Positions 5,781-46,374 of a stretch of 64,000 nt of DNA are shown piece by piece. The DNA comes from an uncultured Candidatus Saccharibacteria bacterium (lineage in GTDB: Bacteria > Patescibacteriota > Doudnabacteria > UBA920 > O2-02-FULL-48-8), in assembly GCA_964605735.1 (NCBI GenBank), contig CAZSDS010000001.1:340813-404812 (forward strand). Reading direction: 5' to 3'. The notes below the pieces were generated by a model that was not told the DNA's origin, made no database searches, and was given only the letters and a program-made list of their open reading frames with translations. The position numbers and the translations under genes are program-made. Numbering within the stretch: the stretch's first letter is position 1; every line of letters starts with the position of its first letter.

Positions 5781-6746
5781 TTAGGCTGGCTTAACCAGAT
5801 TTGCAGGGACTTCCCCTTTCAACGCAGCCACAATGTTTTCTGCGGCAACCTTGCTCATATTGTCTCTGGTTTCTACTGTCGCGGAAGCTGTGTGCGGTGT
5901 GATGACGATATTTTCAAGATCTGCCAGGCCAGGGGTCAACTGCGGCTCATTTTCCCAAACATCAATCCCAGCCGCGAAGATATCGCCGTTTTTTAAGGCA
6001 TTAAGCAAAGCCACCTCATCCACCACAGGTCCGCGCGCAGTATTAACCAAAACCGCGGTCTTTTTCATCATGTCAAACTGGTGGGCTGAGATAAGGTGCT
6101 TAGTAGTTGGCAAAAGGGGCACGTGAATGGAAATAAAATCGGAATTTTTTAAAAGCTCATCCAGTGTTGAGTGCTTGGACCCGATTTCAGCATCCAATTC
6201 CGTATTTGGTTGAGGATTAGTGTATAAAACTTTCATGCCAAAACCCTTAGCAGCACGTCTGGCCAATGCCCCACCTATCCTGCCCATGCCAATCACTCCA
6301 AGCGTTTTGCCATAAACATCCTGTCCGAGCAGTAGGAAAGGCTGCCACCCCTTGTACTTTCCTGCACGGGAGAACCGATCTGATTCCACTACTCTGTGCG
6401 CAGCTGCCAGCATCAAAGCCATTGCATGATCAGCAACTGCGTCTGTCAGAACGTCCGGGGTATTCGTCACTAAAATATTCCTCTTTGCCGCTTCCTCCAA
6501 ATTGATGTTGTCATAGCCGACTGCATAGTTGGCCACAACCTTAAGCTGTGGGCCAGCCGCATCCATGACTTCCCCGTCAATTTTGTCCACCAGCTGTGAC
6601 AAAATCGCGTCTGCGCCTTGAATATGTCCAATCAGCTCTTCACGGGACAATGGCCGGTCAAGCTGAGAGACTTCAACATCCAGATGATTGGCTTTTAATA
6701 CATCAATACCTGCCTGAGGAACACCCCTTGTGACGAATACTTTCAT
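5781..6746 (-). CDS. D-isomer-specific 2-hydroxyacid dehydrogenase (glyoxylate/hydroxypyruvate reductase-like)
   Basis: 321 aa; NAD-binding GVIGMGRIG motif and catalytic R/E/H pattern of the GhrB/HprA family. Confidence 0.85.
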   Translation of the reverse strand: MKVFVTRGVPQAGIDVLKANHLDVEVSQLDRPLSREELIGHIQGADAILSQLVDKIDGEVMDAAGPQLKVVANYAVGYDNINLEEAAKRNILVTNTPDVLTDAVADHAMALMLAAAHRVVESDRFSRAGKYKGWQPFLLLGQDVYGKTLGVIGMGRIGGALARRAAKGFGMKVLYTNPQPNTELDAEIGSKHSTLDELLKNSDFISIHVPLLPTTKHLISAHQFDMMKKTAVLVNTARGPVVDEVALLNALKNGDIFAAGIDVWENEPQLTPGLADLENIVITPHTASATVETRDNMSKVAAENIVAALKGEVPANLVKPA

Positions 6747-7801
6747 TTTTGTTTCCTAATTTTAATGTTGTTGAAGATGAAATCAATTTTTGACGCCAGT
6801 ATTTCTGTGCTTAACGGCGAAGGGTTGATTTTACTCATGTCTACCTTAAAAACTCCTTCAATATTTGCGTATGGGAGTGCAGGGCCAATAATACTCAGAA
6901 AATACTTGTCTAGGGGAATAATAATAACTTTTCTGTACATATCTTGTGCAAAATACCCTCCAGAAATGTAAAATTCAAGGCCCTCTTGACCATCAATGAT
7001 CGCCTTACTTACTCCGTGCTCAGGTGCAAAGGCTATAACACTGGTCGAGTTTTTTAGTTTTTCATACTCACTATTAACAGCAATACCAATAGCAGGATTA
7101 ATTCTATTATATCCTAGTGTTTCTATAGTAACATCAGAAACAAATGTTTCGCCCATAAAAGACCTTAGATTTATATGCTTCAAAAAATCCCTTCCCCCAT
7201 TCATCAGGTCTATTGCTTCGTTCAACCTAACATCTCCAGGATAGGTAATGGAAACACCCGATTCATCATGTACATAGGATATAGGTTCCAAAATCCTAGG
7301 AGTTTCTTTGAATGACTCCACTATCTTTCTAAAGTATGATATTGCTTCCTTTTCATGATTCTTATCATAGTATATTGTGAAGCTATACTCAGGTGTTTCT
7401 GGTATTGGGAAAATGTCGGAATTGCTCTTCAGAATGGCCATTTTCGTAGGAAAACCGGGATTTTCCTGACCATTAAGCAACATATCATTAGTGGTGAATT
7501 CCAAAGATTGGTTATTCAACCTGACTTTATGTTTACCAGTTTCTCTTAATTCACCGAGTCCTCCACGAGTAATGACAAACCTGAATTTTTTCTCCGAATC
7601 GGAAACATCCTCAAAATAGTACGGATCCTTTAGTGGGTAAACAGCCCAAGCGGCTGGATAGCTAAATTGAAATCCGAGTTTTTCATGGGAAAATGTCTTA
7701 TATTCTTCCCCTGTACTAAATTCATAATAAGCAATACCCACCGCTATTACCAGTATAACCAATATCAAGACCCAACTTTTTTTTCGGAGAGAACCAAACA
7801 T
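6743..7801 (-). CDS. hypothetical signal-anchored secreted protein
   Basis: 352 aa; N-terminal TM/signal anchor, AT-rich codon usage, GFQFSYPAAW motif shared with two other secreted proteins in the window. 4-nt overlaps with both neighbours. Confidence 0.55.
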   Translation of the reverse strand: MFGSLRKKSWVLILVILVIAVGIAYYEFSTGEEYKTFSHEKLGFQFSYPAAWAVYPLKDPYYFEDVSDSEKKFRFVITRGGLGELRETGKHKVRLNNQSLEFTTNDMLLNGQENPGFPTKMAILKSNSDIFPIPETPEYSFTIYYDKNHEKEAISYFRKIVESFKETPRILEPISYVHDESGVSITYPGDVRLNEAIDLMNGGRDFLKHINLRSFMGETFVSDVTIETLGYNRINPAIGIAVNSEYEKLKNSTSVIAFAPEHGVSKAIIDGQEGLEFYISGGYFAQDMYRKVIIIPLDKYFLSIIGPALPYANIEGVFKVDMSKINPSPLSTEILASKIDFIFNNIKIRKQK

Positions 7802-9045: not shown

Positions 9046-10047
9046 TTATTTTCTTTTGATGACTTTCTTTACGGCTTTATAGACTGCCGCAGAATCCATT
9101 CCCCATTTTGCTATCAGTTCATTAGGTTCCCCTGACTCTCCAAAATGATCTGGCATGCCCACATACTCTTGGGGCACAGGATAATTTCTGGACAAAACTT
9201 CAGCCACGGCTGAACCGACACCCCCGGTAACCTGATGCTCTTCCGCAGAAACCACACAGCCGGTTTTTTTCGCAGAAGCAATGACGGTTTTTTCATCCAT
9301 TGGCTTTACTGAACCCACGTTTATGACTTCGCACTCAATTCCCTCCTGGGAGAGTTTTTCCGCGGCTTGCAAGGCGTAATAGACTTGCGGTCCGGCGGCA
9401 GTGATTGTGCAATCAGAACCGGTTCTGAATACCTGAGCTTTACCGATTTCAAATGGCGTATTTTCCGTTGTGAATTGCGGGGTTTTTTCGCGGGCCAGCC
9501 TGATATAAACCGGTCCATGAATCTTGCCGGCGGCAATGGTCATTTTTCTGGCTTCAATGGCGTCGCAAGGCACGAGAACAATCATTCTTGGCAATACTCG
9601 CGAAATTGCAATGTCTTCCATGGCTTGATGTGTTGCTCCGTCCGGTCCCACGGAAATCCCGGCGTGCGAACCGATTACCTTTACGTTGTTGCCGGAATAG
9701 CACACAGAAACCCTGATCTGGTCCCAACTGCGTCCAGGTGAGAAAGTTGCATAAGAAGTGCAAAAAGCGACCTTTCCTTCATGAGCCATGCCAGCGGCAA
9801 TCCCAACCATGTTCTGCTCAGCCACCCCTACCTCCACATATCGCTCAGGAAACTGGTTTGCAAAATCAGACATCATGGTTGAACCAGTCAAATCACAACA
9901 AAGTCCAACTACATTTGGGTCTTCTTTGCCAAGAATTACAAGTCCTTCTCCAAAACCTTTCCGGATCGGCACTTGTTCAATCTGATCCGTGAACATGTCA
10001 GGAGAAAGTTCCATTATTGATTTGGTTTTTCTGGTTTTCTTTGCCAT
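9046..10047 (-). CDS. transketolase, C-terminal (pyrimidine-binding) subunit
   Basis: 333 aa with transketolase Pyr and C-terminal domains (GVAEQNMVG...). Confidence 0.9.
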   Translation of the reverse strand: MAKKTRKTKSIMELSPDMFTDQIEQVPIRKGFGEGLVILGKEDPNVVGLCCDLTGSTMMSDFANQFPERYVEVGVAEQNMVGIAAGMAHEGKVAFCTSYATFSPGRSWDQIRVSVCYSGNNVKVIGSHAGISVGPDGATHQAMEDIAISRVLPRMIVLVPCDAIEARKMTIAAGKIHGPVYIRLAREKTPQFTTENTPFEIGKAQVFRTGSDCTITAAGPQVYYALQAAEKLSQEGIECEVINVGSVKPMDEKTVIASAKKTGCVVSAEEHQVTGGVGSAVAEVLSRNYPVPQEYVGMPDHFGESGEPNELIAKWGMDSAAVYKAVKKVIKRK

Positions 10048-10926
10048 TTATTCATGCTCTCCTCTGATTCTTCCGCCAAGTGTCCTTAATTCCTCAAGCG
10101 CTTTTTTGGCCTGCTCGCCTTTTTTAGGCGCACCCGGAACATCTGATGCATCCGGCGGCACTCCATGCCATTCGTATCTGTATTCCATAAAATCAACGCC
10201 TTTGCCCGGAATAGTATGCGCTATTATCATAGTCGGATTTTCGTAAATGGCTTTGGCTTTGTTGCAGGCATCAATAATCTCCCTCATATTGTGCCCGTCA
10301 ACGTTGATCACAGTCCAGCCAAAAGACTCCCACTTTTCACGATACGGTTCCAGCGGCATAACATCTTCAGTGTAACCATCTATCTGAATATTGTTTCGGT
10401 CAACAATAGCAGTAAGATTTCGCAAATTATTTTTTCCGGCGAACATTGCCGCTTCCCAAACCTGTCCTTCCTGGGTCTCACCATCACCCATGACGCAATA
10501 CACTCGCCATGATTTTTTATCCACTTTCAAACCGGTATATGCCATGCCCACTGCCTGTGATATTCCCTGGCCAAGCGGTCCGGAAGAATTCTCAACTCCC
10601 GGCAAAACTTCATTATGCGGATGCCCGTGCAATCTTGTGCCAAGCTTGCGCAAAGTAGCCAATTCTTGTATCGGGAAAAATCCGGCATGCGCTAAAGTTG
10701 CATACCAGACAGGGCAGATATGCCCAGCAGACAAAACAAATCTGTCTCTGTTAGGCATTTCAGGGTTTTTTGGGTCGTAATTCATGATGCCGCCAAAGTA
10801 TAAGGCTGTAAACACGTCAGCCATGCCCAACGGCCCGGCACTGTGGCCGGACTTGGCCGCAACAAGCATCTTGATGATGTCTTGTCTGATTTCGTTTGCT
10901 TTTGTTTCTAGTTCTCTAATGTTCAT
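10048..10926 (-). CDS. transketolase, N-terminal (TPP-binding) subunit
   Basis: 292 aa with GHSAGPLGMAD and GDG...NN TPP-binding motifs; immediately upstream of the C-subunit gene (split transketolase). Confidence 0.9.
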   Translation of the reverse strand: MNIRELETKANEIRQDIIKMLVAAKSGHSAGPLGMADVFTALYFGGIMNYDPKNPEMPNRDRFVLSAGHICPVWYATLAHAGFFPIQELATLRKLGTRLHGHPHNEVLPGVENSSGPLGQGISQAVGMAYTGLKVDKKSWRVYCVMGDGETQEGQVWEAAMFAGKNNLRNLTAIVDRNNIQIDGYTEDVMPLEPYREKWESFGWTVINVDGHNMREIIDACNKAKAIYENPTMIIAHTIPGKGVDFMEYRYEWHGVPPDASDVPGAPKKGEQAKKALEELRTLGGRIRGEHE

Positions 10927-13708: not shown

Positions 13709-14731
13709 TTATTTTGTCTTTTTTTCGTGGTCCATGGGCAGACGCAACAGATCTGCGGCAGTCTCAGGCATGATCGTGTTCACGTAAACGTCAGACCCAA
13801 GTTCGAATCCGCCCCAAACATTAAGTCTTGGTAGGATCTCCAGATGCCAGTGGTAGCTGTTCAAATCATACCTGGTCATGACCCGGTGTGAAATCGGCAA
13901 AGTGTGGATGTAGTAATTATACGCCGGATTATTCAATTTGTAATATAGTTTTTGCAATGTCTGCTTTAAAACACGGCCCAGCGCCTTGCGCTCCTCATCC
14001 GTAACTTCAGTAAAATTGGCCATATGCCGCTTTGGAATGATGCGCAAAGCGTAGGGCACTCGAGCCGCAAACGGACAAAAAACCAAAAAGTCCTCATCAT
14101 CAATTACCACACGTTCTTTGTCAGACAACTCTTTCATGATCATTTGGCAGTACACACATGATCCATTCTGCTGATAGTACATATAACTGCCAGTCACTTC
14201 CTCATGCAGATGTTCCGGGACAAAAGGAGTGGCAAAAATCTGGGAATGGGGATGGAGTAAAGAAGCGCCGCCAGCTTTCCCGTGGTTTTGTAAAATATGG
14301 ATATAACGAACCTCCGGATGGCCGCTTAACTCTTTTATGCGTTGTTGATAGCTAAACAGGTTGGCATCCATGATATCATCGGACAAAAAGCCTGTCAGGA
14401 CATTGTGCTCACGCGTGATAATCACCTCATGGTCACCGATCCCCTCCCTGACATTGTAAAAATCCGTTTTCTTCCTTCCTCCGGCATGCCCCAAAGCCTC
14501 AAACTTATTTGGAATTACCCGGACCTTCCAGTCCTTCCCTTCAGGGAACGAGATAATTTCCAAATTGTAACCTTCATTACCTGGGCAAAATACGCACTTT
14601 GAATCACAGACAGGCAATCCTGCAGGATCTGGACTGGCCGGCTCTTGCCCGAAGTCCTCCGGTCGTTTGCTCCTGTTTGGGGCAAACAGAACCCAGTGAT
14701 GGGATACTATATCTTGTCTAAATTCGCTCAA
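13709..14731 (-). CDS. galT: galactose-1-phosphate uridylyltransferase family (HIT superfamily)
   Basis: 340 aa; N-terminal CxxC Zn site (CVFCPGNE) and catalytic HPHSQ (HxHxQ) motif. Confidence 0.8.
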   Translation of the reverse strand: MSEFRQDIVSHHWVLFAPNRSKRPEDFGQEPASPDPAGLPVCDSKCVFCPGNEGYNLEIISFPEGKDWKVRVIPNKFEALGHAGGRKKTDFYNVREGIGDHEVIITREHNVLTGFLSDDIMDANLFSYQQRIKELSGHPEVRYIHILQNHGKAGGASLLHPHSQIFATPFVPEHLHEEVTGSYMYYQQNGSCVYCQMIMKELSDKERVVIDDEDFLVFCPFAARVPYALRIIPKRHMANFTEVTDEERKALGRVLKQTLQKLYYKLNNPAYNYYIHTLPISHRVMTRYDLNSYHWHLEILPRLNVWGGFELGSDVYVNTIMPETAADLLRLPMDHEKKTK

Positions 14732-15257
14732 TCTTTTGTGTAAATTTGAATGTTTCCACTATCTTGCTGAACATCGAGCCCTTGCCTCGTAAAACCAACA
14801 ACCTGTCGCCCTCTTTGACCAAAATTATTTCTTCCGGCTGTTCTGTCCCCTGGGAAATCATTGTTGCGTTTAATCCGCCAACTCTGACCTGTCTTTCCTC
14901 TGTTCTGAACAAAGACTCCTTGACTGCACGCTCCTCAGATTCAGGATACAAACTGACCTTAAAGTATTCATTTACGTCCGTAGGACTGACAAAACTGATA
15001 GTATTCCCGGCTTCCGATTCCAGCCCCCAATTTTTTGGATATTTAAAGGAAAAACCTGACGGATGGTTAAACGAAGCCCAGGTGCGCGTACCCGTGGTTT
15101 CAGCCATCTGGTTCTGAAAATATATTTCGCTGATCTGAATCTGGGCGATCAAAGCCGAGCACACCAAAACAGCGATGGCGATCGTCCAGACCAACCAGCG
15201 ATTATCGTGAATTTTTATTTTATGCGGATGCCTCCACTTTGTTTTTCTTTTTGCCAT
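14718..15257 (-). CDS. hypothetical signal-anchored secreted protein
   Basis: 179 aa; basic N-terminus + TM, then GFSFKYPKNW motif resembling 6743..7801 and 26649..27086 products. Confidence 0.5.
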   Translation of the reverse strand: MAKRKTKWRHPHKIKIHDNRWLVWTIAIAVLVCSALIAQIQISEIYFQNQMAETTGTRTWASFNHPSGFSFKYPKNWGLESEAGNTISFVSPTDVNEYFKVSLYPESEERAVKESLFRTEERQVRVGGLNATMISQGTEQPEEIILVKEGDRLLVLRGKGSMFSKIVETFKFTQKIERI

Positions 15258-26648: not shown

Positions 26649-27086
26649 TTATTTAGTAAACCTGAAGGTTGTTAAGATATTTTCTATTATTGCTGCTGAG
26701 GAATCTTGAGACTCAAAGGTGTATACAGAAGAATCGCTGCCCAAACTGTACATTATTTCGTTCTCCGTATCATACACTTTCACCTCATTACCGTTTATCG
26801 TAGTTGTTCTGGTTGGTGGTAACCCAGCAGTTTCTGGTCCAGAAACTATCAACGAAATTACGGTATTCCCATTTCTGTCTATGAAAGAAAATGTAGACGA
26901 TGCATCTGTTCTCACTTCCAAGTCGGTTGGATGTTGGAGTTTAAACCCATACTGGTCGTTAACATAGGTAATCACTTCAGATGTGGTCTGCTGAGTACCA
27001 GAAGTTTCCTGATTCGAAGCAGATTGTTGAGTACAAGCCGCAGCTACTAGAGAAATGCCAGCAATTAATAGTAGTATCTTTTTCAT
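26649..27086 (-). CDS. hypothetical lipoprotein inserted between rplB and rpsS
   Basis: [18 protein letters not shown] lipobox signal; ATG 27084-27086 lies 1 nt after the rplB stop and the gene ends 1 nt before rpsS. S/T-rich mature region with [11 protein letters not shown] motif. Confidence 0.7.
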
Positions 27087-27087
27087 A

Positions 27088-27927
27088 TTACTTGCTTCGT
27101 CTCTTAACAATAAACTTTGCTGAACTCTTCTTTGGGTTGCGGGTTCTTACGCCTAACGCATGCTTGCCCCATGGAGTCTTCGGATACTTCAAACCGATTG
27201 GGTTATGTCCTTCACCACCGCCGTGCGGGTGATCCACCGGGTTCATGGCCTTACCTCTGACGGTTGGGCGAATACCCATGTGGCGGACTCGTCCAGCTTT
27301 TCCGATTCTGACATACATCCAGTCAACGTTTGATACTTGTCCGATGGTGGCGTAAGACTTTACCGGTACTCTGCGGATTTCGCCGGAAGGCATTTTCAGA
27401 AGCGCATAATCACCTTCCATGGATTGGATGATCGCGTAAGTTCCAGCTGATCTGGCAAACTGACCGCCTTTTCCGCCACCCAGGATTTCAATGTCATGGA
27501 TGTTGGTGCCGACTGGGATGTTTCTGATCATCATGCGGTTGCCTGGCTTGATTTCAGTTCGCTCTGCGGTCATTACCACTTGTCCGATTTTCATGCCATC
27601 CGGAGCCAAGATAAATCTTTTTTCTCCGTCTCTGTATGCAAGCAATGAAATGAAAGCGCTTCGTCCCGGATCATACTGCAAGGTCTGCACTTTGGCAGGG
27701 ATATTCATCTTGTCGAGTCTGCTGAAATCAATTGCTCGGAGTTTCTTGCGGTGGCCGCCGCCGATGTGGCGGACAGTAATTTTACCAGAGTGGTTTCGTC
27801 CGGCTGATTTCTTCTTTGACCTGATCAGCGCACGAGGAACTTTCACATCCGCCTTCAATCCTGAATAGTCGGTGACGGAGTGGATTCTGCGCCCTGCTGA
27901 AGTTGGTTTGTAAATCTTAATCGCCAT
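27088..27927 (-). CDS. rplB: 50S ribosomal protein L2
   Basis: 279 aa L2 family incl. conserved GGGH region. Confidence 0.95.
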   Translation of the reverse strand: MAIKIYKPTSAGRRIHSVTDYSGLKADVKVPRALIRSKKKSAGRNHSGKITVRHIGGGHRKKLRAIDFSRLDKMNIPAKVQTLQYDPGRSAFISLLAYRDGEKRFILAPDGMKIGQVVMTAERTEIKPGNRMMIRNIPVGTNIHDIEILGGGKGGQFARSAGTYAIIQSMEGDYALLKMPSGEIRRVPVKSYATIGQVSNVDWMYVRIGKAGRVRHMGIRPTVRGKAMNPVDHPHGGGEGHNPIGLKYPKTPWGKHALGVRTRNPKKSSAKFIVKRRSK

Positions 27928-36775: not shown

Positions 36776-37129
36776 ATGTCAGACGAAAAACTCAAAGCAG
36801 CGTCCAGTGAAATTTCTGAAATTCTCAGGAAGGCTGAATTACCGCCGGCGGATGAAATCCTGGCACTGGTAATTGCCAGTATCGTGGTAGTCAATCGTCA
36901 TATGGAGTCAGCGCAGCGAGCAGGGGATGACGAGTTTCTCCGCATGATGCGACGAACGCTCCACGCCCTACCTGAATCAATCACGCAGTTTATCCAGGCG
37001 TGGCAACTGGGCAGGACCAATCAAGCCACTGCTTCGGCTGGGGACCTCATTCGGCAGAAGTTCGACCACATCTTGCGGGACTCGAAGGAAATCGACACCA
37101 GACGTCGAATCTTCATGAGCCGAAGATGA
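36776..37129 (+). CDS. hypothetical protein
   Basis: AGGAGG 36765-36770, ATG 36776; 117 aa, no recognisable motif; terminator at 37142-37179. Confidence 0.5.
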   Translation: MSDEKLKAASSEISEILRKAELPPADEILALVIASIVVVNRHMESAQRAGDDEFLRMMRRTLHALPESITQFIQAWQLGRTNQATASAGDLIRQKFDHILRDSKEIDTRRRIFMSRR

Positions 37130-38125: not shown

Positions 38126-38314
38126 ATGCGCAAATGTACAGTTTGCGGCAAGGGCTACTCAAACACTGTTAAGCGCTCTCACTCAATGCAAGCCACCAAG
38201 TACCGCTTGTACCCTAACCTGCAATGGTTGAAACTCGACCATGGCCAGAGAGTGAAAGCTTGCACCAAGTGCATCAAGGCTCACAGCAGAAAATTAGCCA
38301 AAGTCGCCGTCTAA
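38126..38314 (+). CDS. rpmB: 50S ribosomal protein L28 (zinc-ribbon form)
   Basis: 62 aa, CTVCGK...CTKCIKAH; SD AAGGAAA upstream. Confidence 0.9.
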   Translation: MRKCTVCGKGYSNTVKRSHSMQATKYRLYPNLQWLKLDHGQRVKACTKCIKAHSRKLAKVAV

Positions 38315-38315
38315 A

Positions 38316-38352
38316 AATCCCTTCAGCAAAAAAGCTCGATAGGGATTTTTTG
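38316..38352 (+). terminator. terminator-like hairpin after rpmB
   Basis: aaatccct...agggattttttg with long loop. Confidence 0.4.
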
Positions 38353-38403
38353 TTGTGCGCATGCTATATTGTTCAAACGCCGGCAATTTTTTATAATACG
38401 AAC

Positions 38404-39945
38404 ATGCAACAATTACTTTCAAAACTGCTCAACAATTTCACAATGTACCAGGTCGCGCTGTACGCCCTGCGGGGTTTTATTGGCACGGCTGTGGTTTTAA
38501 GCTTATTTGGGGTGCTAGATTACACTTGGTGGCACATAGTCGGCAACCTGATTTTGTTTATAGTATTCTGTGTCGCCAGCAACTACTTGCTGGCAAAACT
38601 GTTTAAAGTCAAGACCAATTACGAATCGCAATTTATTACTGCTGAAATTCTGACTGTAATAGTCGGCCCGCTCAACCCATTTGCCTGGTGGTGGGCAATT
38701 TTCTTGATCTCCTTCCTGGCAATGGCCAGCAAATATGTTTTGGTTTACAAGCAGCGCCACATTTTTAATCCGGCGGCGTTTGGCATATTCGCCTCAGCCC
38801 TGCTTATTGAACAAGGCGCATCCTGGTGGATTGGCGGACGCTACATGTTGCCCTTTGTGATTCTGGGCGGTATTCTGATTCTGCAAAAACTGCGCTGGTT
38901 CCATTTGGCAATTTCATTCCTGCTGACTTATTTTGCGGCGCTGGTCATAACTTTGTTTTTGCAAGGCGCAGACAACAGCATTATCCTTCAGTCGCTGCAG
39001 ACAACAGTGCTGGATTCCGCGCTCATCTTCTTTGTAACCGTTATGCTGATTGAACCTCTGACAGCCCCGCGCAGCACTAATCGCCGCATTGCTTACGGCG
39101 TGATCATCGCCCTCTTTATTATCCTGCACCAAACGTACTGGCCGCCTGAATGGCCAACATACGCTTACAGCTTTGAAACCGGACTTCTCTTTGGGAACCT
39201 GGTCGCTTTCCTGGCAGGCAGAAAAGATGAAAGACAGACCCTGAAGCTGGTTCAGAAAAAGGCTGAAAACTCAGACACCTTCAGCTTCTGGTTTGAACCT
39301 TTGCGCAAATTCGATTTTGTGCCTGGTCAGTACCTGGAATGGATGCTGGTCCATGACAAGCATGACAGCCGCGGAGTCAGAAGATTTTTCACTATTTCCG
39401 CGGCTCCAAGCGAGCAGTACTTGAGGCTGATCACTCGCTTTTATCCAAACCCAAGCACTTACAAACAGGCGTTGATGAACATGAAACCTGGGGATGAAAT
39501 TGTTGTCTCCCGACTTGAAGGTGAATTTGTTCTGCCGAATGAGGCTGGAAAAAAATTAGCTTTCATTGCAGGCGGCGTTGGCATAGCCCCTTTCTTAAGC
39601 TTCTTTAAACACCTGACTGACACAAAACAAAAACGCGACATAGTCATGCTTTATGCAAACAAAACTCCTGGCGACATCGCGTTTGCCGAAGAAATTGACT
39701 CAGCCAAAGCAGTCGGGGTCAAAAACTTCCACGTGGTAACTGAACCGGATTCAAACTGGACCGGCTTATCCGGATTTATAACAGACGATATGGTCAAAGA
39801 ACAGATTCCTGACTGGAAGGATCGAACCTTTTATCTTTCAGGACCTGAACCAATGGTTTTGAGTTACGAAAAACTATTAAAAGGAATTGGACTGCCGTCC
39901 AGCCAAATCAAAAGAGATTTCTTCCCAGGCTACCAACCGCAGTAA
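38404..39945 (+). CDS. polytopic membrane domain fused to FNR-type FAD/NAD(P)-binding reductase domain (membrane oxidoreductase, family uncertain)
   Basis: About 310-aa N-terminal domain with 8-9 hydrophobic segments and an IFNPAAFG motif; C-terminal RRFFTISAAP (RxYS-like FAD site) and GGVGIAPF (NAD(P) site) typical of ferredoxin-NADP reductase-like domains. TATAAT 6 nt upstream of the ATG and no SD. The upstream extension to 38224, which overlaps rpmB, is rejected. Confidence 0.7.
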   Translation: MQQLLSKLLNNFTMYQVALYALRGFIGTAVVLSLFGVLDYTWWHIVGNLILFIVFCVASNYLLAKLFKVKTNYESQFITAEILTVIVGPLNPFAWWWAIFLISFLAMASKYVLVYKQRHIFNPAAFGIFASALLIEQGASWWIGGRYMLPFVILGGILILQKLRWFHLAISFLLTYFAALVITLFLQGADNSIILQSLQTTVLDSALIFFVTVMLIEPLTAPRSTNRRIAYGVIIALFIILHQTYWPPEWPTYAYSFETGLLFGNLVAFLAGRKDERQTLKLVQKKAENSDTFSFWFEPLRKFDFVPGQYLEWMLVHDKHDSRGVRRFFTISAAPSEQYLRLITRFYPNPSTYKQALMNMKPGDEIVVSRLEGEFVLPNEAGKKLAFIAGGVGIAPFLSFFKHLTDTKQKRDIVMLYANKTPGDIAFAEEIDSAKAVGVKNFHVVTEPDSNWTGLSGFITDDMVKEQIPDWKDRTFYLSGPEPMVLSYEKLLKGIGLPSSQIKRDFFPGYQPQ

Positions 39946-42426
39946 CTATAATTCGATATTCCAATTTACGTTTCTGTCCAGCAGTTGCAACATCTGGCCT
40001 TGAGGGATCGGCGGGCTGAACAAATAGCCTTGTGCTTTGTCACACTCCCTATCTTTAAGGAAACGAAGCTGGTCATAGCGCTCGACTCCCTCTGCGGTCA
40101 CCAACACCCCCAAACTGCGCGAGAGATTGATCACGGCATTGGCAATTGCCGTGTCTTTTTCTTTCATGGGAATCCCCTTCATGAACGAATGCGAAACTTT
40201 CAAACTGTGAACCGGAAACTTCTTCACGTAATCAAGTGACGAATGGCCAGTGGTGAAATCGTCGATCGCAAATTTTATCCCATCTTTCCTGAGCTGAACC
40301 ATCATGTTGTAAAGGTTGTGTGAATTCTCCACCAAAACGCTTTCTGTAAGCTCAAATTCCAACCGCTTTGGGTCAAACTCACATTCCGCCAAAATCTTTC
40401 TGATGTTTCTGATCAAATGCCTCTGCCGTAACTGTCTTGCCGACAAATTGACTGACAAATCTAGCATATGGCCGTACCTTTCCCAGGTTTTTACATCCAG
40501 GCATGCCTGGCGCAATACCCACTCGCCGATCGGCTGAATCAGTCCGGTGGTCTCGGCTATTGGGATAAACTCATCCGGGAAAGTCAGGCCAAGCTCCGGG
40601 TGCATCCATCTGATCAAGGCTTCCACCTGCACAATCCTTCCGGTTGGAATGTCGATTTGCGGAATGTAATAAACAAGGAATTCATTGTTCTCCAGTGCCT
40701 TTCGCAAAGTGTTTTCCATGGCCAATTGCTGGAAAGTGGTCGCGTTCATGGATGGGTTGTAGTACTGGAAGTTGTTGCGGCCCATTTCTTTGGCGCGGTA
40801 CAAAGCTGAATCAGCGTTCTTCATAAGCGAAGACACATCGGTCCCGTCATATGGATAAACTGAAATCCCAATGCTTGGCGTGATATAAAGTTCGTGGGTA
40901 TCAAGCCTGAACGCGGGCTTAAGCGCTTCCAGGATTCTGGAGCATGCCTGGCCTATCTCTTCTTCGCGGACAATGCCGCCCAGGATAATGCCGTATTCAT
41001 CTCCGCCAAGACGCGCCAGCATATCCGTATCATCCAAACAGCTGGCCAGCCTTAAACTGACCTCCTGAATCAGCCGGTCGCCAATGGAATGCCCCAGCGA
41101 TTCATTAATCATCTTAAACCGGTCAAGGTCAATTATCATTGTGCCGAACAACTTATCCTGTTTTTCCTCCAGCAGATTCCCTAATCTTTCTGTAAAATAA
41201 TTGCGGTTCGGCAAATCAGTCAGGCTGTCATGATAATGGCTGTATTGGGCTCTTTCTTCTGCAGCTTTCCTTTCAGTTATGTCACGGAAATTGACGACAA
41301 TTGCTTTGACATTGGCATCATGCAAAAGATTTGTGCTGGAAGTTTCCACCCACCTCCAAACACCGTCCGCGTGCCTGATTCGCATTTCATGGACTGTAGT
41401 ATCGCCTGGAGTAGCCAGCAGTTTTGCGAACTCCTCCATGACGTAGTTAATGTCAGCCGGATGGACATAATCAAATCCGTTTCGGGTGCCGAATTCAACG
41501 GTGTCATAACCCAGCACCCGCGTAATGGACGGGCTGGAATAGATAACCGTTCCTTTTGCGTCAATCAGGGCAATAACATCAGAGCTTTTTTCAATCAAAG
41601 CCCGGAATCTGGCTTCATGGCTTTTCAGCTTTTCCTCGGATTTTTTTTCTTCTGTAATATCCCTGATTTCCAAAACCGCACCAACCAGCTCGCCTTCATT
41701 TACTATCGGGCTGGACGAGCACAAACTATAAAAAAACTCGCCATTTTTTCTGATGTAAACACTCTCATGGTCTCTAACCGGTTTCATTTCAGCCAACGCC
41801 CTGTCAACCTTGCATTCATCCTGGGGAAAAGGACTGCCGTCAGGCTTTGTATGGTGAATCACCTCATGCAGACTCTTGCCTCTGACACTATCCAATGAAT
41901 GCCCAATCATTTTCTCCGCCGCCGGATTCATAAACGTGACGCAATTTTTGGCATCCATCAAAAACAAGCCGACAGTGGTGTTGTCAGTTATGCTTTTAAT
42001 TAAATAATTTTGGTGTTCCAGGGAAGAAATTTCCCTGACAGTGTCAGTAACGTCAATGCAGGAACCAATATACCCCACGAACTCTCCTCCTGGCAGGTAA
42101 AGTGGCGAACCGTTTTCCATAAACCAGCGGTAGCGTCCATCATGGCGGCGCAGGCGGTACTTCAACCCAAATTCTTTCCTTCGATCAAAATTTTCCGTAT
42201 AAACCTTCAAACACCTTTCCACGTCTTCCGGATACATGCTGTCCACCCATCCGTAGCCAAGTTCCTGCTCCATTTCCCTGCCGGTGAACTCAAGCCAGCG
42301 CTTGTTGAAGAACGTGCAATTTTTGCTTGTGTCAGACATCCAGACCAAAACCGGAGCACTGTCAGCCATCGCCTGGAAAAGCGAGAGCGCATCAGATAAT
42401 TTTTGTTTCTGCAGTTCTTTATTCAT
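39946..42426 (-). CDS. PAS-PAS-PAS-GGDEF-EAL signalling protein (c-di-GMP cyclase/phosphodiesterase)
   Basis: 826 aa; three PAS repeats, GGDEF domain (RLGGDEYG variant), EAL domain (EFELTE, DDFTTG, sensor-type motifs). Its stop codon directly abuts the stop of the convergent 38404 gene. Confidence 0.9.
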   Translation of the reverse strand: MNKELQKQKLSDALSLFQAMADSAPVLVWMSDTSKNCTFFNKRWLEFTGREMEQELGYGWVDSMYPEDVERCLKVYTENFDRRKEFGLKYRLRRHDGRYRWFMENGSPLYLPGGEFVGYIGSCIDVTDTVREISSLEHQNYLIKSITDNTTVGLFLMDAKNCVTFMNPAAEKMIGHSLDSVRGKSLHEVIHHTKPDGSPFPQDECKVDRALAEMKPVRDHESVYIRKNGEFFYSLCSSSPIVNEGELVGAVLEIRDITEEKKSEEKLKSHEARFRALIEKSSDVIALIDAKGTVIYSSPSITRVLGYDTVEFGTRNGFDYVHPADINYVMEEFAKLLATPGDTTVHEMRIRHADGVWRWVETSSTNLLHDANVKAIVVNFRDITERKAAEERAQYSHYHDSLTDLPNRNYFTERLGNLLEEKQDKLFGTMIIDLDRFKMINESLGHSIGDRLIQEVSLRLASCLDDTDMLARLGGDEYGIILGGIVREEEIGQACSRILEALKPAFRLDTHELYITPSIGISVYPYDGTDVSSLMKNADSALYRAKEMGRNNFQYYNPSMNATTFQQLAMENTLRKALENNEFLVYYIPQIDIPTGRIVQVEALIRWMHPELGLTFPDEFIPIAETTGLIQPIGEWVLRQACLDVKTWERYGHMLDLSVNLSARQLRQRHLIRNIRKILAECEFDPKRLEFELTESVLVENSHNLYNMMVQLRKDGIKFAIDDFTTGHSSLDYVKKFPVHSLKVSHSFMKGIPMKEKDTAIANAVINLSRSLGVLVTAEGVERYDQLRFLKDRECDKAQGYLFSPPIPQGQMLQLLDRNVNWNIEL

Positions 42427-42510
42427 GCTAAAGCAATTCTCCTGTGCGTAAATTCACATCATTTATAATAATACCCGCTAATCCCATGCAAACCTTACTG
42501 TACCTTTGCA

Positions 42511-43705: not shown

Positions 43706-43966
43706 TTACGCGGTGCTTGTGCGTCTTGCCTGGCTGAGCGCAGTCAGTCTGGCAAGTATCTCCTGGGAGCGTTTTTGGTCGCTTTCCTTGAGGTTCCGGA
43801 GACGCTCAATATCAACCTGGTTCGTGGCCTGGAGGTCGCTGATGCGCGACTCCAAGTGAGTTCTGTAATTCTTGGGAAGACCATCCTTTTTGGCTTTCTC
43901 CAGCTGGCGCTGAAGTTTTTGAATTTCCCTGGTGCGATCTTCAATCGCATGCTCAAGCCGCGGCAT
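43706..43966 (-). CDS. hypothetical coiled-coil protein
   Basis: 86 aa, heptad-rich (LQRQLEKAKK..., ERLRNLKESDQKRSQEIL); SD AAGGAGG 7 nt upstream of ATG. Confidence 0.55.
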   Translation of the reverse strand: MPRLEHAIEDRTREIQKLQRQLEKAKKDGLPKNYRTHLESRISDLQATNQVDIERLRNLKESDQKRSQEILARLTALSQARRTSTA

Positions 43967-46287: not shown

Positions 46288-46374
46288 TGGTGCCGCTGGA
46301 CGGAGTCGAACCGTCATGAGCGTAAGCCCACACGATTTTGAGTCGTGCGTGTCTGCCAGTTCCACCACAGCGGC
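46288..46374 (-). tRNA. tRNA-Leu (anticodon CAA), 87 nt with encoded CCA
   Basis: Minus-strand sequence GCCGCTG...CAGCGGCACCA folds as a cloverleaf: 7-bp acceptor stem, anticodon loop CTCAAAA, long variable arm, T-arm GGTTCGACTCC. Confidence 0.9.

Follow-up and report, generated by a model that had tools for sequence, protein, structure and literature searches.

A putative single-polypeptide Nqr/Rnf-like oxidoreductase next to a convergent PAS-GGDEF-EAL gene

The two convergent genes and the fusion protein

The subject of this analysis is a pair of convergent genes in a stretch of 64,000 nucleotides of contig CAZSDS010000001.1 (assembly GCA_964605735.1, positions 340,813 to 404,812), which is referred to here as the window. 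The plus-strand gene, which runs from an ATG at position 38404 to a TAA at 39943-39945, encodes a fusion protein of 513 amino acids, in which a membrane domain similar to NqrB and RnfD is joined to a ferredoxin-NADP reductase (FNR)-type module. The minus-strand gene starts at 42426, ends with a TAG (CTA on the plus strand) at 39946-39948, and encodes a protein of 826 amino acids with three PAS domains followed by a GGDEF and an EAL domain. On the evidence of sequence and structural models, the fusion protein is best read as a membrane-bound, NAD(P)H-driven electron-transfer enzyme. The locus as a whole probably holds a single-polypeptide Nqr/Rnf-like oxidoreductase, which would be made from its own leaderless mRNA, has its GGDEF-EAL neighbour by inheritance and lies directly against it as the result of a deletion. 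The coordinates of both genes, the zero spacing of their stop codons and the three-PAS GGDEF-EAL architecture had been given in an earlier reading of the same DNA, hereafter the original prediction, and all were confirmed, the first two by re-reading of the sequence and the third by Pfam (Table 1). The public gene call of the fusion protein (P0001, 531 amino acids) starts at a TTG at 38350; however, the ATG at 38404 is preferred because it fits the family alignment, in which the start M-x-x-I-x-x-x-L-x-x-x-T-M-Y is common to 40 homologues.

As judged from its motifs and from the model, the FNR module is intact and complete. NAD_binding_1 (PF00175, residues 387-487, E=5.3e-19) is the sole Pfam domain found on the fusion protein, and NAD_binding_6 gives a partial match below the cut-off. 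The motifs R326-R-F-F-T-I-S for flavin adenine dinucleotide (FAD), G390-G-V-G-I-A-P for the nucleotide, S479-G-P-E-P-M and the C-terminal F507-P-G-Y are present, and their columns are invariant or near-invariant in the family alignment. The C-terminal half matches flavohemoprotein, GbcB and BenC reductase modules in NCBIfam and, in profile searches of the PDB, cytochrome b5 reductase as well as the FAD domain of NqrF. These two and the reductase modules of flavohemoglobins are its closest structures, and the fold was matched by Foldseek as well. These proteins share the FAD and NAD(P)H motifs and the fold with the window protein, which, however, lacks the 2Fe-2S ferredoxin domain of NqrF and has no globin or heme domain.

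The N-terminal membrane domain has the NqrB/RnfD fold. In the PDB, a profile of the 272 N-terminal residues matched NqrB (7xk3_B, E=4.4e-8) and RnfD (8ahx_D, E=2.8e-5; 7zc6_D, E=0.017) and nothing besides these two proteins. A Foldseek search with the model of the full-length fusion (pLDDT 90.9, pTM 0.83) was swamped by FNR matches, and the N-terminal domain was therefore modelled separately with AlphaFold (AF2, pLDDT 88). The 15 best matches of this model were all RnfD or NqrB structures with TMq values of 0.62-0.71, including NqrB of the Na+-NQR of Vibrio cholerae (7xk3_B) and RnfD of RNF complexes (8rbq_D, 9eri_D, 7zc6_D). The NCBIfam model rnfD matches the window protein weakly (E=2e-3), and PF03116 is annotated on many of its homologues. 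The FNPA motif, which had been taken as reminiscent of NqrB/RnfD, is found in the sequence H119-I-F-N-P-A, and both this reading and the proposed architecture for trans-membrane electron transfer are supported by the profile and fold matches, the latter together with the intact FNR module.

The conserved positions of the membrane domain are T79, H119, N122, E217, E258 and N265. The first four align with T162, N200, N203 and D346, which are the riboflavin ligands of NqrB (Hau et al. 2023, PMC10643135), suggesting that T79, H119, N122 and E217 line the equivalent of the NqrB riboflavin pocket. The profile match covers residues 272-395 of NqrB, and the two proteins have R-x-F-x-N-P-A and the acidic residue equivalent to D346 in common. 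In contrast, the segment of NqrB between residues 209 and 271, the loop that bears covalent flavin mononucleotide (FMN) on Thr236, is cut to about 15 residues in the profile alignment of the fusion family, and the N-terminal quinone-binding extension of NqrB is missing from the window protein as well. In the place of the FMN loop, at the outer face according to the positive-inside rule, lies Ser140 of a near-invariant G-A-S-W-W. Ser140 was considered as an obligatory minimal site for flavinylation by ApbE and rejected, since about 13 of 60 ApbE-adjacent loci have N, D, G, I, A, E or L at this position; it also counts against this site that the canonical flavinylation motif D-x-V-S-G-A-T sits on the FMN_bind protein encoded at such loci. 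Huang et al. 2024 (PMC10979944) reached the same conclusion on the lost flavinylation of the membrane subunit.

The window protein is thus not an NqrB or RnfD proper, for which covalent FMN on a Thr in an (S/T)GAT-type loop and co-encoded subunits are required. Na+-NQR and RNF are multi-subunit complexes, whereas the 64 kb of the window hold no other nqr or rnf genes; furthermore, the membrane domain is joined directly to an NAD(P)H dehydrogenase module, which is not the case in NqrB or RnfD, and therefore electron flow would be outward and not a return path to quinone. A closer counterpart is found in the NQR/RNF-like systems defined by Méheust et al. 2021 (PMC8238504), which combine an NqrB/RnfD-like membrane domain with a C-terminal PF00175 domain, occur mostly in Actinobacteria and in the candidate phyla radiation (CPR), and were proposed to use NAD(P)H as the electron donor for an FMN-binding protein outside the cytosol. 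A two-subunit Nqr/Rnf-like complex, with Ktedonobacter racemifer as the organism, was modelled by Huang et al. 2024 (PMC10979944), and the membrane subunit was described as having lost the flavinylation site and retained the non-covalent flavin site (PMC8238504, PMC10979944). The fusion architecture is already in the literature (PMC8238504, PMC10979944) and is not new. The window protein shares with the published family the PF03116-type membrane domain and PF00175, and by its alignment it also appears to have lost the flavinylated Thr and kept the non-covalent pocket; it is likely a further member of this kind, in an orphan subfamily.

In outline, bacterial NOX enzymes and ferric reductases such as the NOX of Streptococcus pneumoniae (8qq7/8qt6) are also composed of a membrane domain and a C-terminal FNR-like module, by which electrons of NAD(P)H are taken across the membrane. 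However, the NOX membrane domain is a bis-heme ferric-reductase domain with six transmembrane helices, whereas the window protein has the RnfD/NqrB fold and no conserved His pairs, H119 being the sole near-invariant His. A ferric-reductase/NOX membrane domain was ruled out on these grounds, and the homology to NOX is limited to the dehydrogenase module.

Partners of the fusion gene and the GGDEF-EAL neighbour

A scan of one genome per species yielded 478 relatives of the fusion protein, the best 80 of which (identity at most 45%) were examined. These belong to many CPR groups, to Ktedonobacteria (Dictyobacter, Ktedonospora) and to Alphaproteobacteria (Mesorhizobium, Kaistia, Phyllobacterium, Methylocapsa), and the scan recovered the published Nqr/Rnf-like family with its Ktedonobacteria, CPR groups and Mesorhizobium. 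Neighbours at these distant loci were counted by clustering of open reading frames (ORFs). An FMN_bind gene, an ApbE gene or both lie upstream of the fusion gene on the same strand, frequently with overlap, in 61 of the 76 loci evaluable upstream, and the usual operon order is FMN_bind, ApbE and, third, the fusion gene. The upstream FMN_bind protein is membrane-anchored, carries PF04205 in 40 of 41 members and bears the flavinylation motif, and the ApbE partner matches its family with E=1.5e-42. In contrast to the published clusters with an NqrC/RnfG-like FMN_bind protein and ApbE, neither gene is found among the 20 non-housekeeping ORFs of the window, where rpmB and an M50 protease gene lie upstream of the fusion gene, nor at the loci of the window's close clade. 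Because no such gene lies nearby, the outer-face partner may be encoded elsewhere or may be a different protein.

The window copy also differs in sequence. In the window protein, its close relatives, L001-L004 and L044, a Y-x-x-E motif precedes the last transmembrane helix, whereas the other members have x-x-P-E; the motif lies in an outer loop that matches the region of NqrB around P376, where NqrC docks (NqrB structure: PMC10643135), and this outer loop is longer in the closest relatives of the window protein. The FMN_bind-ApbE operon is missing in 13 of 14 Y-x-x-E loci, although the upstream sequence of two of these 13 (L013 and L089) is too short for a verdict, and is present in 59 of 69 x-x-P-E loci (Fisher p=2.6e-8, with samples that are not phylogenetically independent). 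By sequence and gene context, the window copy thus belongs to a distinct subfamily without FMN_bind or ApbE neighbours, and its conserved neighbour, in contrast to that of the published systems, is the GGDEF-EAL gene.

Two further observations concern the surroundings of the fusion gene in relatives. In 13 of the 67 distant loci whose downstream sequence extends for 2.5 kb or more, a histidine kinase gene, an OmpR-type response regulator gene or both lie no more than two ORFs beyond the fusion gene, usually in convergent orientation; these 13 include L054, L060, L064, L065, L071 and L072 (Mesorhizobium) as well as L038, L045, L057, L058 and L061, and because of them the Nqr/Rnf-like operon appears to be recurrently flanked by signal-transduction genes. 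In L086/L087, the single related lineage in which the GGDEF-EAL gene is missing beside the fusion gene, a split riboflavin kinase/FAD synthetase, made up of a flavokinase (PF01687) and a CTP_transf_like gene, is encoded at 10037-10898, at a distance of about 2.5 kb on the downstream side of the RnfD-FNR gene.

The GGDEF-EAL protein is probably a catalytically competent enzyme of cyclic di-GMP (c-di-GMP) turnover, as its residues indicate. The A-site reads GGDEY at positions 474-478, and GGDE(Y/F) is found in all orthologues; the EAL residues E602, N660, E692, D722-D723, K743, E779/E782 and Q799 are present and kept across orthologues; an RxxD I-site is absent from the GGDEF domain, which has DDTD in its place. 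Domain order and EAL catalytic residues are those of the PAS-GGDEF-EAL enzymes DibA, PdeR/PRK10060 and DosP, and in NCBIfam the protein scores best with DibA (E=1.6e-142), though under the cut-off of that model and without any match at the equivalog level. In contrast to these enzymes, the window protein is encoded in a reduced genome of about 0.8 Mb, in which such large signalling proteins are uncommon, and the retention of a large and apparently active PAS-GGDEF-EAL protein suggests that c-di-GMP signalling is retained in the lineage. A cofactor could not be assigned to the PAS domains: PDB searches gave no match diagnostic of the LOV, heme or FAD class and only generic, weak matches (best E=1.9e-9, an uncharacterised sensory box), and the LOV motif NCRFLQ is not present. 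The labels LOV, heme and FAD were therefore dropped, and His191 of PAS2, which is invariant within the clade, is the sole hint of a cofactor.

Conservation of the gene pair in relatives, a check suggested with the original prediction, gave a divided result, with the pair present in nearly all near relatives and in one distant locus. Of the ten nearest relatives examined, nine have a convergent PAS-GGDEF-EAL orthologue directly after the fusion gene (P0002, P0012, P0014, P0015, P0017, P0018, P0019 and P0028 (look-up) and L090 (metagenome scan)), with identities to the window of 46-68% for the fusion protein and 43-70% for the GGDEF-EAL protein. The exception, P0024 (47% identical), has the block of M50 protease, L28 and fusion genes followed directly by mscL, without the GGDEF-EAL gene. 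A reciprocal metagenome scan with the GGDEF-EAL protein found one close relative, L090, which is paired with the fusion as well, and 24 other matches, which are generic GGDEF-EAL proteins of at most 42% identity without a fusion gene. Among the 67 distant loci, only that of Kaistia (L045) has a GGDEF-EAL neighbour, which is convergent and stands before a histidine kinase/response regulator pair. Across the clade, the block of M50, L28, fusion, GGDEF-EAL and MscL genes is syntenic, and its flanks vary, with an insertion of a malic-enzyme gene in L088, an ORF of 190 amino acids in place of MscL in P0015, and ATP synthase in place of DUF4383/ParB in L082. According to this pattern, the pair is a lineage-specific, co-inherited synteny, which would be consistent with functional coupling without proving it.

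The original prediction had gone further and seen in the pair a hint of a redox-to-second-messenger module. Spelled out, the PAS domains would sense a signal made by the RnfD-FNR protein or shared with it, such as flavin, the NAD(P)H/NAD(P)+ ratio or O2, and selection would keep the two genes together as a functional unit. Such a module is considered unlikely. It would account for the retention of the pair in most near relatives while the flanks change, for the convergent PAS-GGDEF-EAL gene directly downstream in the unrelated alphaproteobacterium Kaistia, for the kinase and regulator genes at distant loci and for the invariant His191. However, the partners found family-wide are FMN_bind and ApbE, the P0024 lineage keeps the block with MscL straight after the fusion gene, and the synteny of the whole block makes the adjacency explicable by inheritance. 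Moreover, the two genes are convergent and parted by a clear terminator in six of seven relatives, so that they are not co-transcribed; the PAS matches carry no LOV, heme or FAD signature; and alphaproteobacteria are rich in GGDEF-EAL genes, so that the Kaistia case may be due to chance.

Transcription and the stop-codon junction

The fusion gene appears to have its own promoter. Downstream of rpmB, a hairpin between an A-tract and a T-tract, for which L083, L084 and L086 have better-formed counterparts in this position, probably terminates the rpmB transcript, thereby making the fusion gene its own transcription unit. The hairpin is followed by a candidate promoter, whose -10 element TATAAT is separated from the ATG by the six nucleotides ACGAAC, as the original prediction had stated. 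The -35 element is weak, and a strict promoter consensus scan did not list the site. Among the window genes, the fusion gene alone has a TATAAT at -6. The same element stands exactly six nucleotides before the homologous ATG in L081, L082, L083, L084/85 and L088, and eight nucleotides before it in L086/87. The earlier suggestion of a leaderless mRNA thus gains comparative support, because this promoter geometry is kept across proteins that are only 46-58% identical, and the comparison favours a dedicated TATAAT promoter that would yield a leaderless transcript, from which the fusion gene would be expressed alone. The missing Shine-Dalgarno sequence had been noted as well; indeed, no GGAG-like motif precedes the ATG, but this is not distinctive, given that most window genes have no recognisable Shine-Dalgarno sequence within 18 nucleotides of their start. 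Many ribosomal-protein genes of the window have AATAAT or ATAAT directly before their ATG. The GGDEF-EAL gene, in turn, has an AGGAG 12 nucleotides before its ATG and therefore a conventional leader.

At the other end of the two genes, the original prediction had seen no terminator between the abutting stop codons and concluded that the 3' ends of the mRNAs must overlap. The first part holds, as no hairpin was found at the window junction; the overlap is plausible rather than compulsory, since terminator-like hairpins lie within the opposite coding regions. A terminator consensus scan, which found 12 sites where 5.7±2.3 were expected, matched a hairpin about 190 nucleotides past the fusion stop, antisense within the EAL-coding region, which is a possible cryptic terminator of the plus-strand transcript, and a weak hairpin on the minus strand within the 3' end of the fusion gene (Table 1). 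In the relatives, the stops are 11-146 nucleotides apart, and in six of the seven that were checked this gap holds a clear bidirectional intrinsic terminator, in which a GC hairpin is flanked by an A-tract and a T-tract. An example is the terminator of L083, AAAAATCCCTCGCAAGAGGGATTTTT; equivalent ones are present in L082, L084, L088 and L090, a minimal one spans the stops in L089, and L081 has a weaker one with a short stem (−4.8 kcal/mol). The gaps of L082 (7675-7782) and L088 (7489-7634) also contain large extra hairpins, the folding energies over the full length of the two gaps being −49 and −40 kcal/mol, and the arms of the L088 hairpin are long AT-rich inverted repeats.

Neither of the two window proteins is appreciably extended. 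Because the relatives have the terminator, the window junction has no hairpin and the proteins are not extended, the comparison indicates that the window lost the shared terminator and that the two stops came to abut by a secondary, local deletion rather than by design. Likewise, the clear terminator in six of seven relatives argues that the fusion gene and the GGDEF-EAL gene are independent transcription units. The PAS-GGDEF-EAL gene would accordingly be transcribed separately and would have been inherited beside the fusion gene within one small-genome, CPR-like lineage, and deletion of the bidirectional terminator that the relatives kept would have brought the stops together.

Loss of the terminator could also have created a genome-specific antisense coupling, in which overlapping transcripts lead, through interference or processing of double-stranded RNA, to mutually antagonistic expression of the two enzymes. 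The directly adjoining stops without a junction hairpin, the presence of terminators in the relatives, weaker in L081, and the location of the nearest terminator-like sites inside the opposite coding regions (40132-40153 on the plus strand, 39904-39890 on the minus strand) would all fit; however, the cryptic hairpins may be enough for termination, or termination may depend on Rho, and the arrangement is found in one genome alone, where neutral genome compaction is a more likely cause than evolved regulation. Antisense coupling is thus improbable.

Proposed electron path and genomic setting

In the preferred reading of the fusion protein as an Nqr/Rnf-like oxidoreductase, NAD(P)H would reduce the FAD of the FNR module, and the electron would then pass to a non-covalently bound flavin in the NqrB-riboflavin-type pocket of the membrane domain; that flavin would in turn donate it to an acceptor on the outer side of the membrane. 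For the majority of the family, this acceptor would be the ApbE-flavinylated, NqrC/RnfG-like FMN_bind protein encoded just upstream. Several points weigh against this reading of the locus. The published descriptions of the fusion family are bioinformatic. Taken by itself, the part of the NqrB alignment with T79, H119 and N122, its N-terminal half, scores 5 bits, and because of this weakness the mapping of the pocket leans on collinearity, on the motif R-x-(F/I)-(L/F)-N-P-A and on the fold match. Orphan status was judged on 64 kb of a genome of about 800 kb. Finally, the GGDEF-EAL neighbour is still kept in relatives at 46% identity and occurs independently in Kaistia, which leaves some room for a functional link.

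It is tempting to speculate that the Y-x-x-E fusions are self-sufficient enzymes of reduced genomes without an NqrC-like partner and ApbE, maybe reducing a host-derived or environmental acceptor, and that in the lineage of the window the output of the fusion is read by the PAS-GGDEF-EAL protein as a redox-to-c-di-GMP circuit, but the chance of this is considered small. If the orphan subfamily did work alone, it would be the simplest known Nqr/Rnf derivative, in which one polypeptide carries NAD(P)H electrons across the membrane, and, if true, this would bear on how ultra-small symbiotic bacteria without quinones and respiratory chains dispose of reducing equivalents. As it stands, the locus represents mainly known biology, namely a described family, inherited synteny, loss of a terminator by genome compaction and a likely leaderless transcript.

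It is highly improbable that the RnfD-like domain does not conduct electrons and is instead an ion or solute channel gated by the FNR module, or a mere membrane anchor: the missing covalent-FMN loop, the alignment of E74 with NqrB E157, an entry-site residue of the proposed Na+ pathway, and the rank of urea transporters as next-best fold matches would agree with it, but equivalents of the NqrB Na+-path residues D52 and E273 are absent from the alignment, the most conserved membrane residues are those matching the riboflavin ligands, the urea-transporter matches (E>0.28, TMq at most 0.46) are far weaker than those to RnfD/NqrB (TMq about 0.7), and most family members share an operon with the genes of a flavoprotein outside the cytosol and of its flavin transferase, which points to trans-membrane electron transfer. 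Urea transporters are known remote relatives of the NqrB/RnfD fold, and a characterised transporter family, which the original prediction had raised as grounds for another interpretation of the N-terminal domain, was rejected on the same values.

Table 1. Coordinates of the features at the locus (positions are those of the window).
Feature	Position	Strand	Remarks
rpmB	38126-38314	+	upstream neighbour of the fusion gene
A-tract, hairpin, T-tract after rpmB	38313-38351	+	read from the sequence
Candidate promoter	38369-38397	+	weak -35 TTGTTC 38369-38374, 17-nucleotide spacer, -10 TATAAT 38392-38397
NqrB/RnfD-like membrane domain	38404-39219	+	residues 1-272, about 10 transmembrane segments
FNR-type FAD/NAD(P)H module and stop codon	39226-39945	+	residues ~275-513
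Weak terminator-like hairpin	39890-39904	-	consensus match, 5 bp; inside fusion 3' end, ~45 nucleotides past GGDEF-EAL stop
Abutting stops TAA (+) / TAG (-)	39943-39948	both	0 nucleotides between
PAS-PAS-PAS-GGDEF-EAL gene	39946-42426	-	Pfam/NCBIfam, 826 amino acids
EAL	40713-40009	-	residues 572-806, Pfam E=4.9e-68
Terminator-like hairpin	40132-40153	+	consensus match, 7 bp, 5 GC, T-rich tail; inside EAL-coding region, antisense
GGDEF	41235-40771	-	residues 398-552, Pfam E=1.8e-46
PAS3	41622-41251	-	residues ~269-392
PAS2	41997-41656	-	residues ~144-257
PAS1	42381-42019	-	residues ~16-136
Promoter-like site TTTGCA-16-TATTAT	42465-42492	-	130-nucleotide mscL/GGDEF-EAL gap
tRNA gene	46291-46374	-	sole Rfam match in the window

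The homologues of the fusion protein come mainly from CPR (Patescibacteria) genomes. The window has a GC content of 46%, its GC skew on the plus strand is negative throughout positions 1-64000, and its genes show an extreme strand bias, about 60 of the 64 being minus-strand genes; the few plus-strand genes include rpmB, the RnfD-FNR fusion gene and an ORF at 36776-37129. The local order is rpsL-rpsG-fusA (-), this ORF of 117 amino acids (+), the M50 protease gene (-), rpmB (+), the fusion gene (+), the GGDEF-EAL gene (-), mscL (-), a DUF4383 gene (-) and parB (-). Rfam detected the tRNA and no further structured RNA in the window; a c-di-GMP riboswitch is not present. The ORF at 36776-37129 has no family match, and L081 and L082 have an ORF of similar size at this place; a coiled-coil-like ORF of 86 amino acids at 43706-43966 (-) has no family match either. 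Three further ORFs of the minus strand (6743-7801, 14718-15257 and 26649-27110) encode membrane-anchored or lipoprotein-like proteins with sub-threshold matches to PsbP_2 (PF18933) over the same stretch, and may represent a small paralogous family of secreted proteins.

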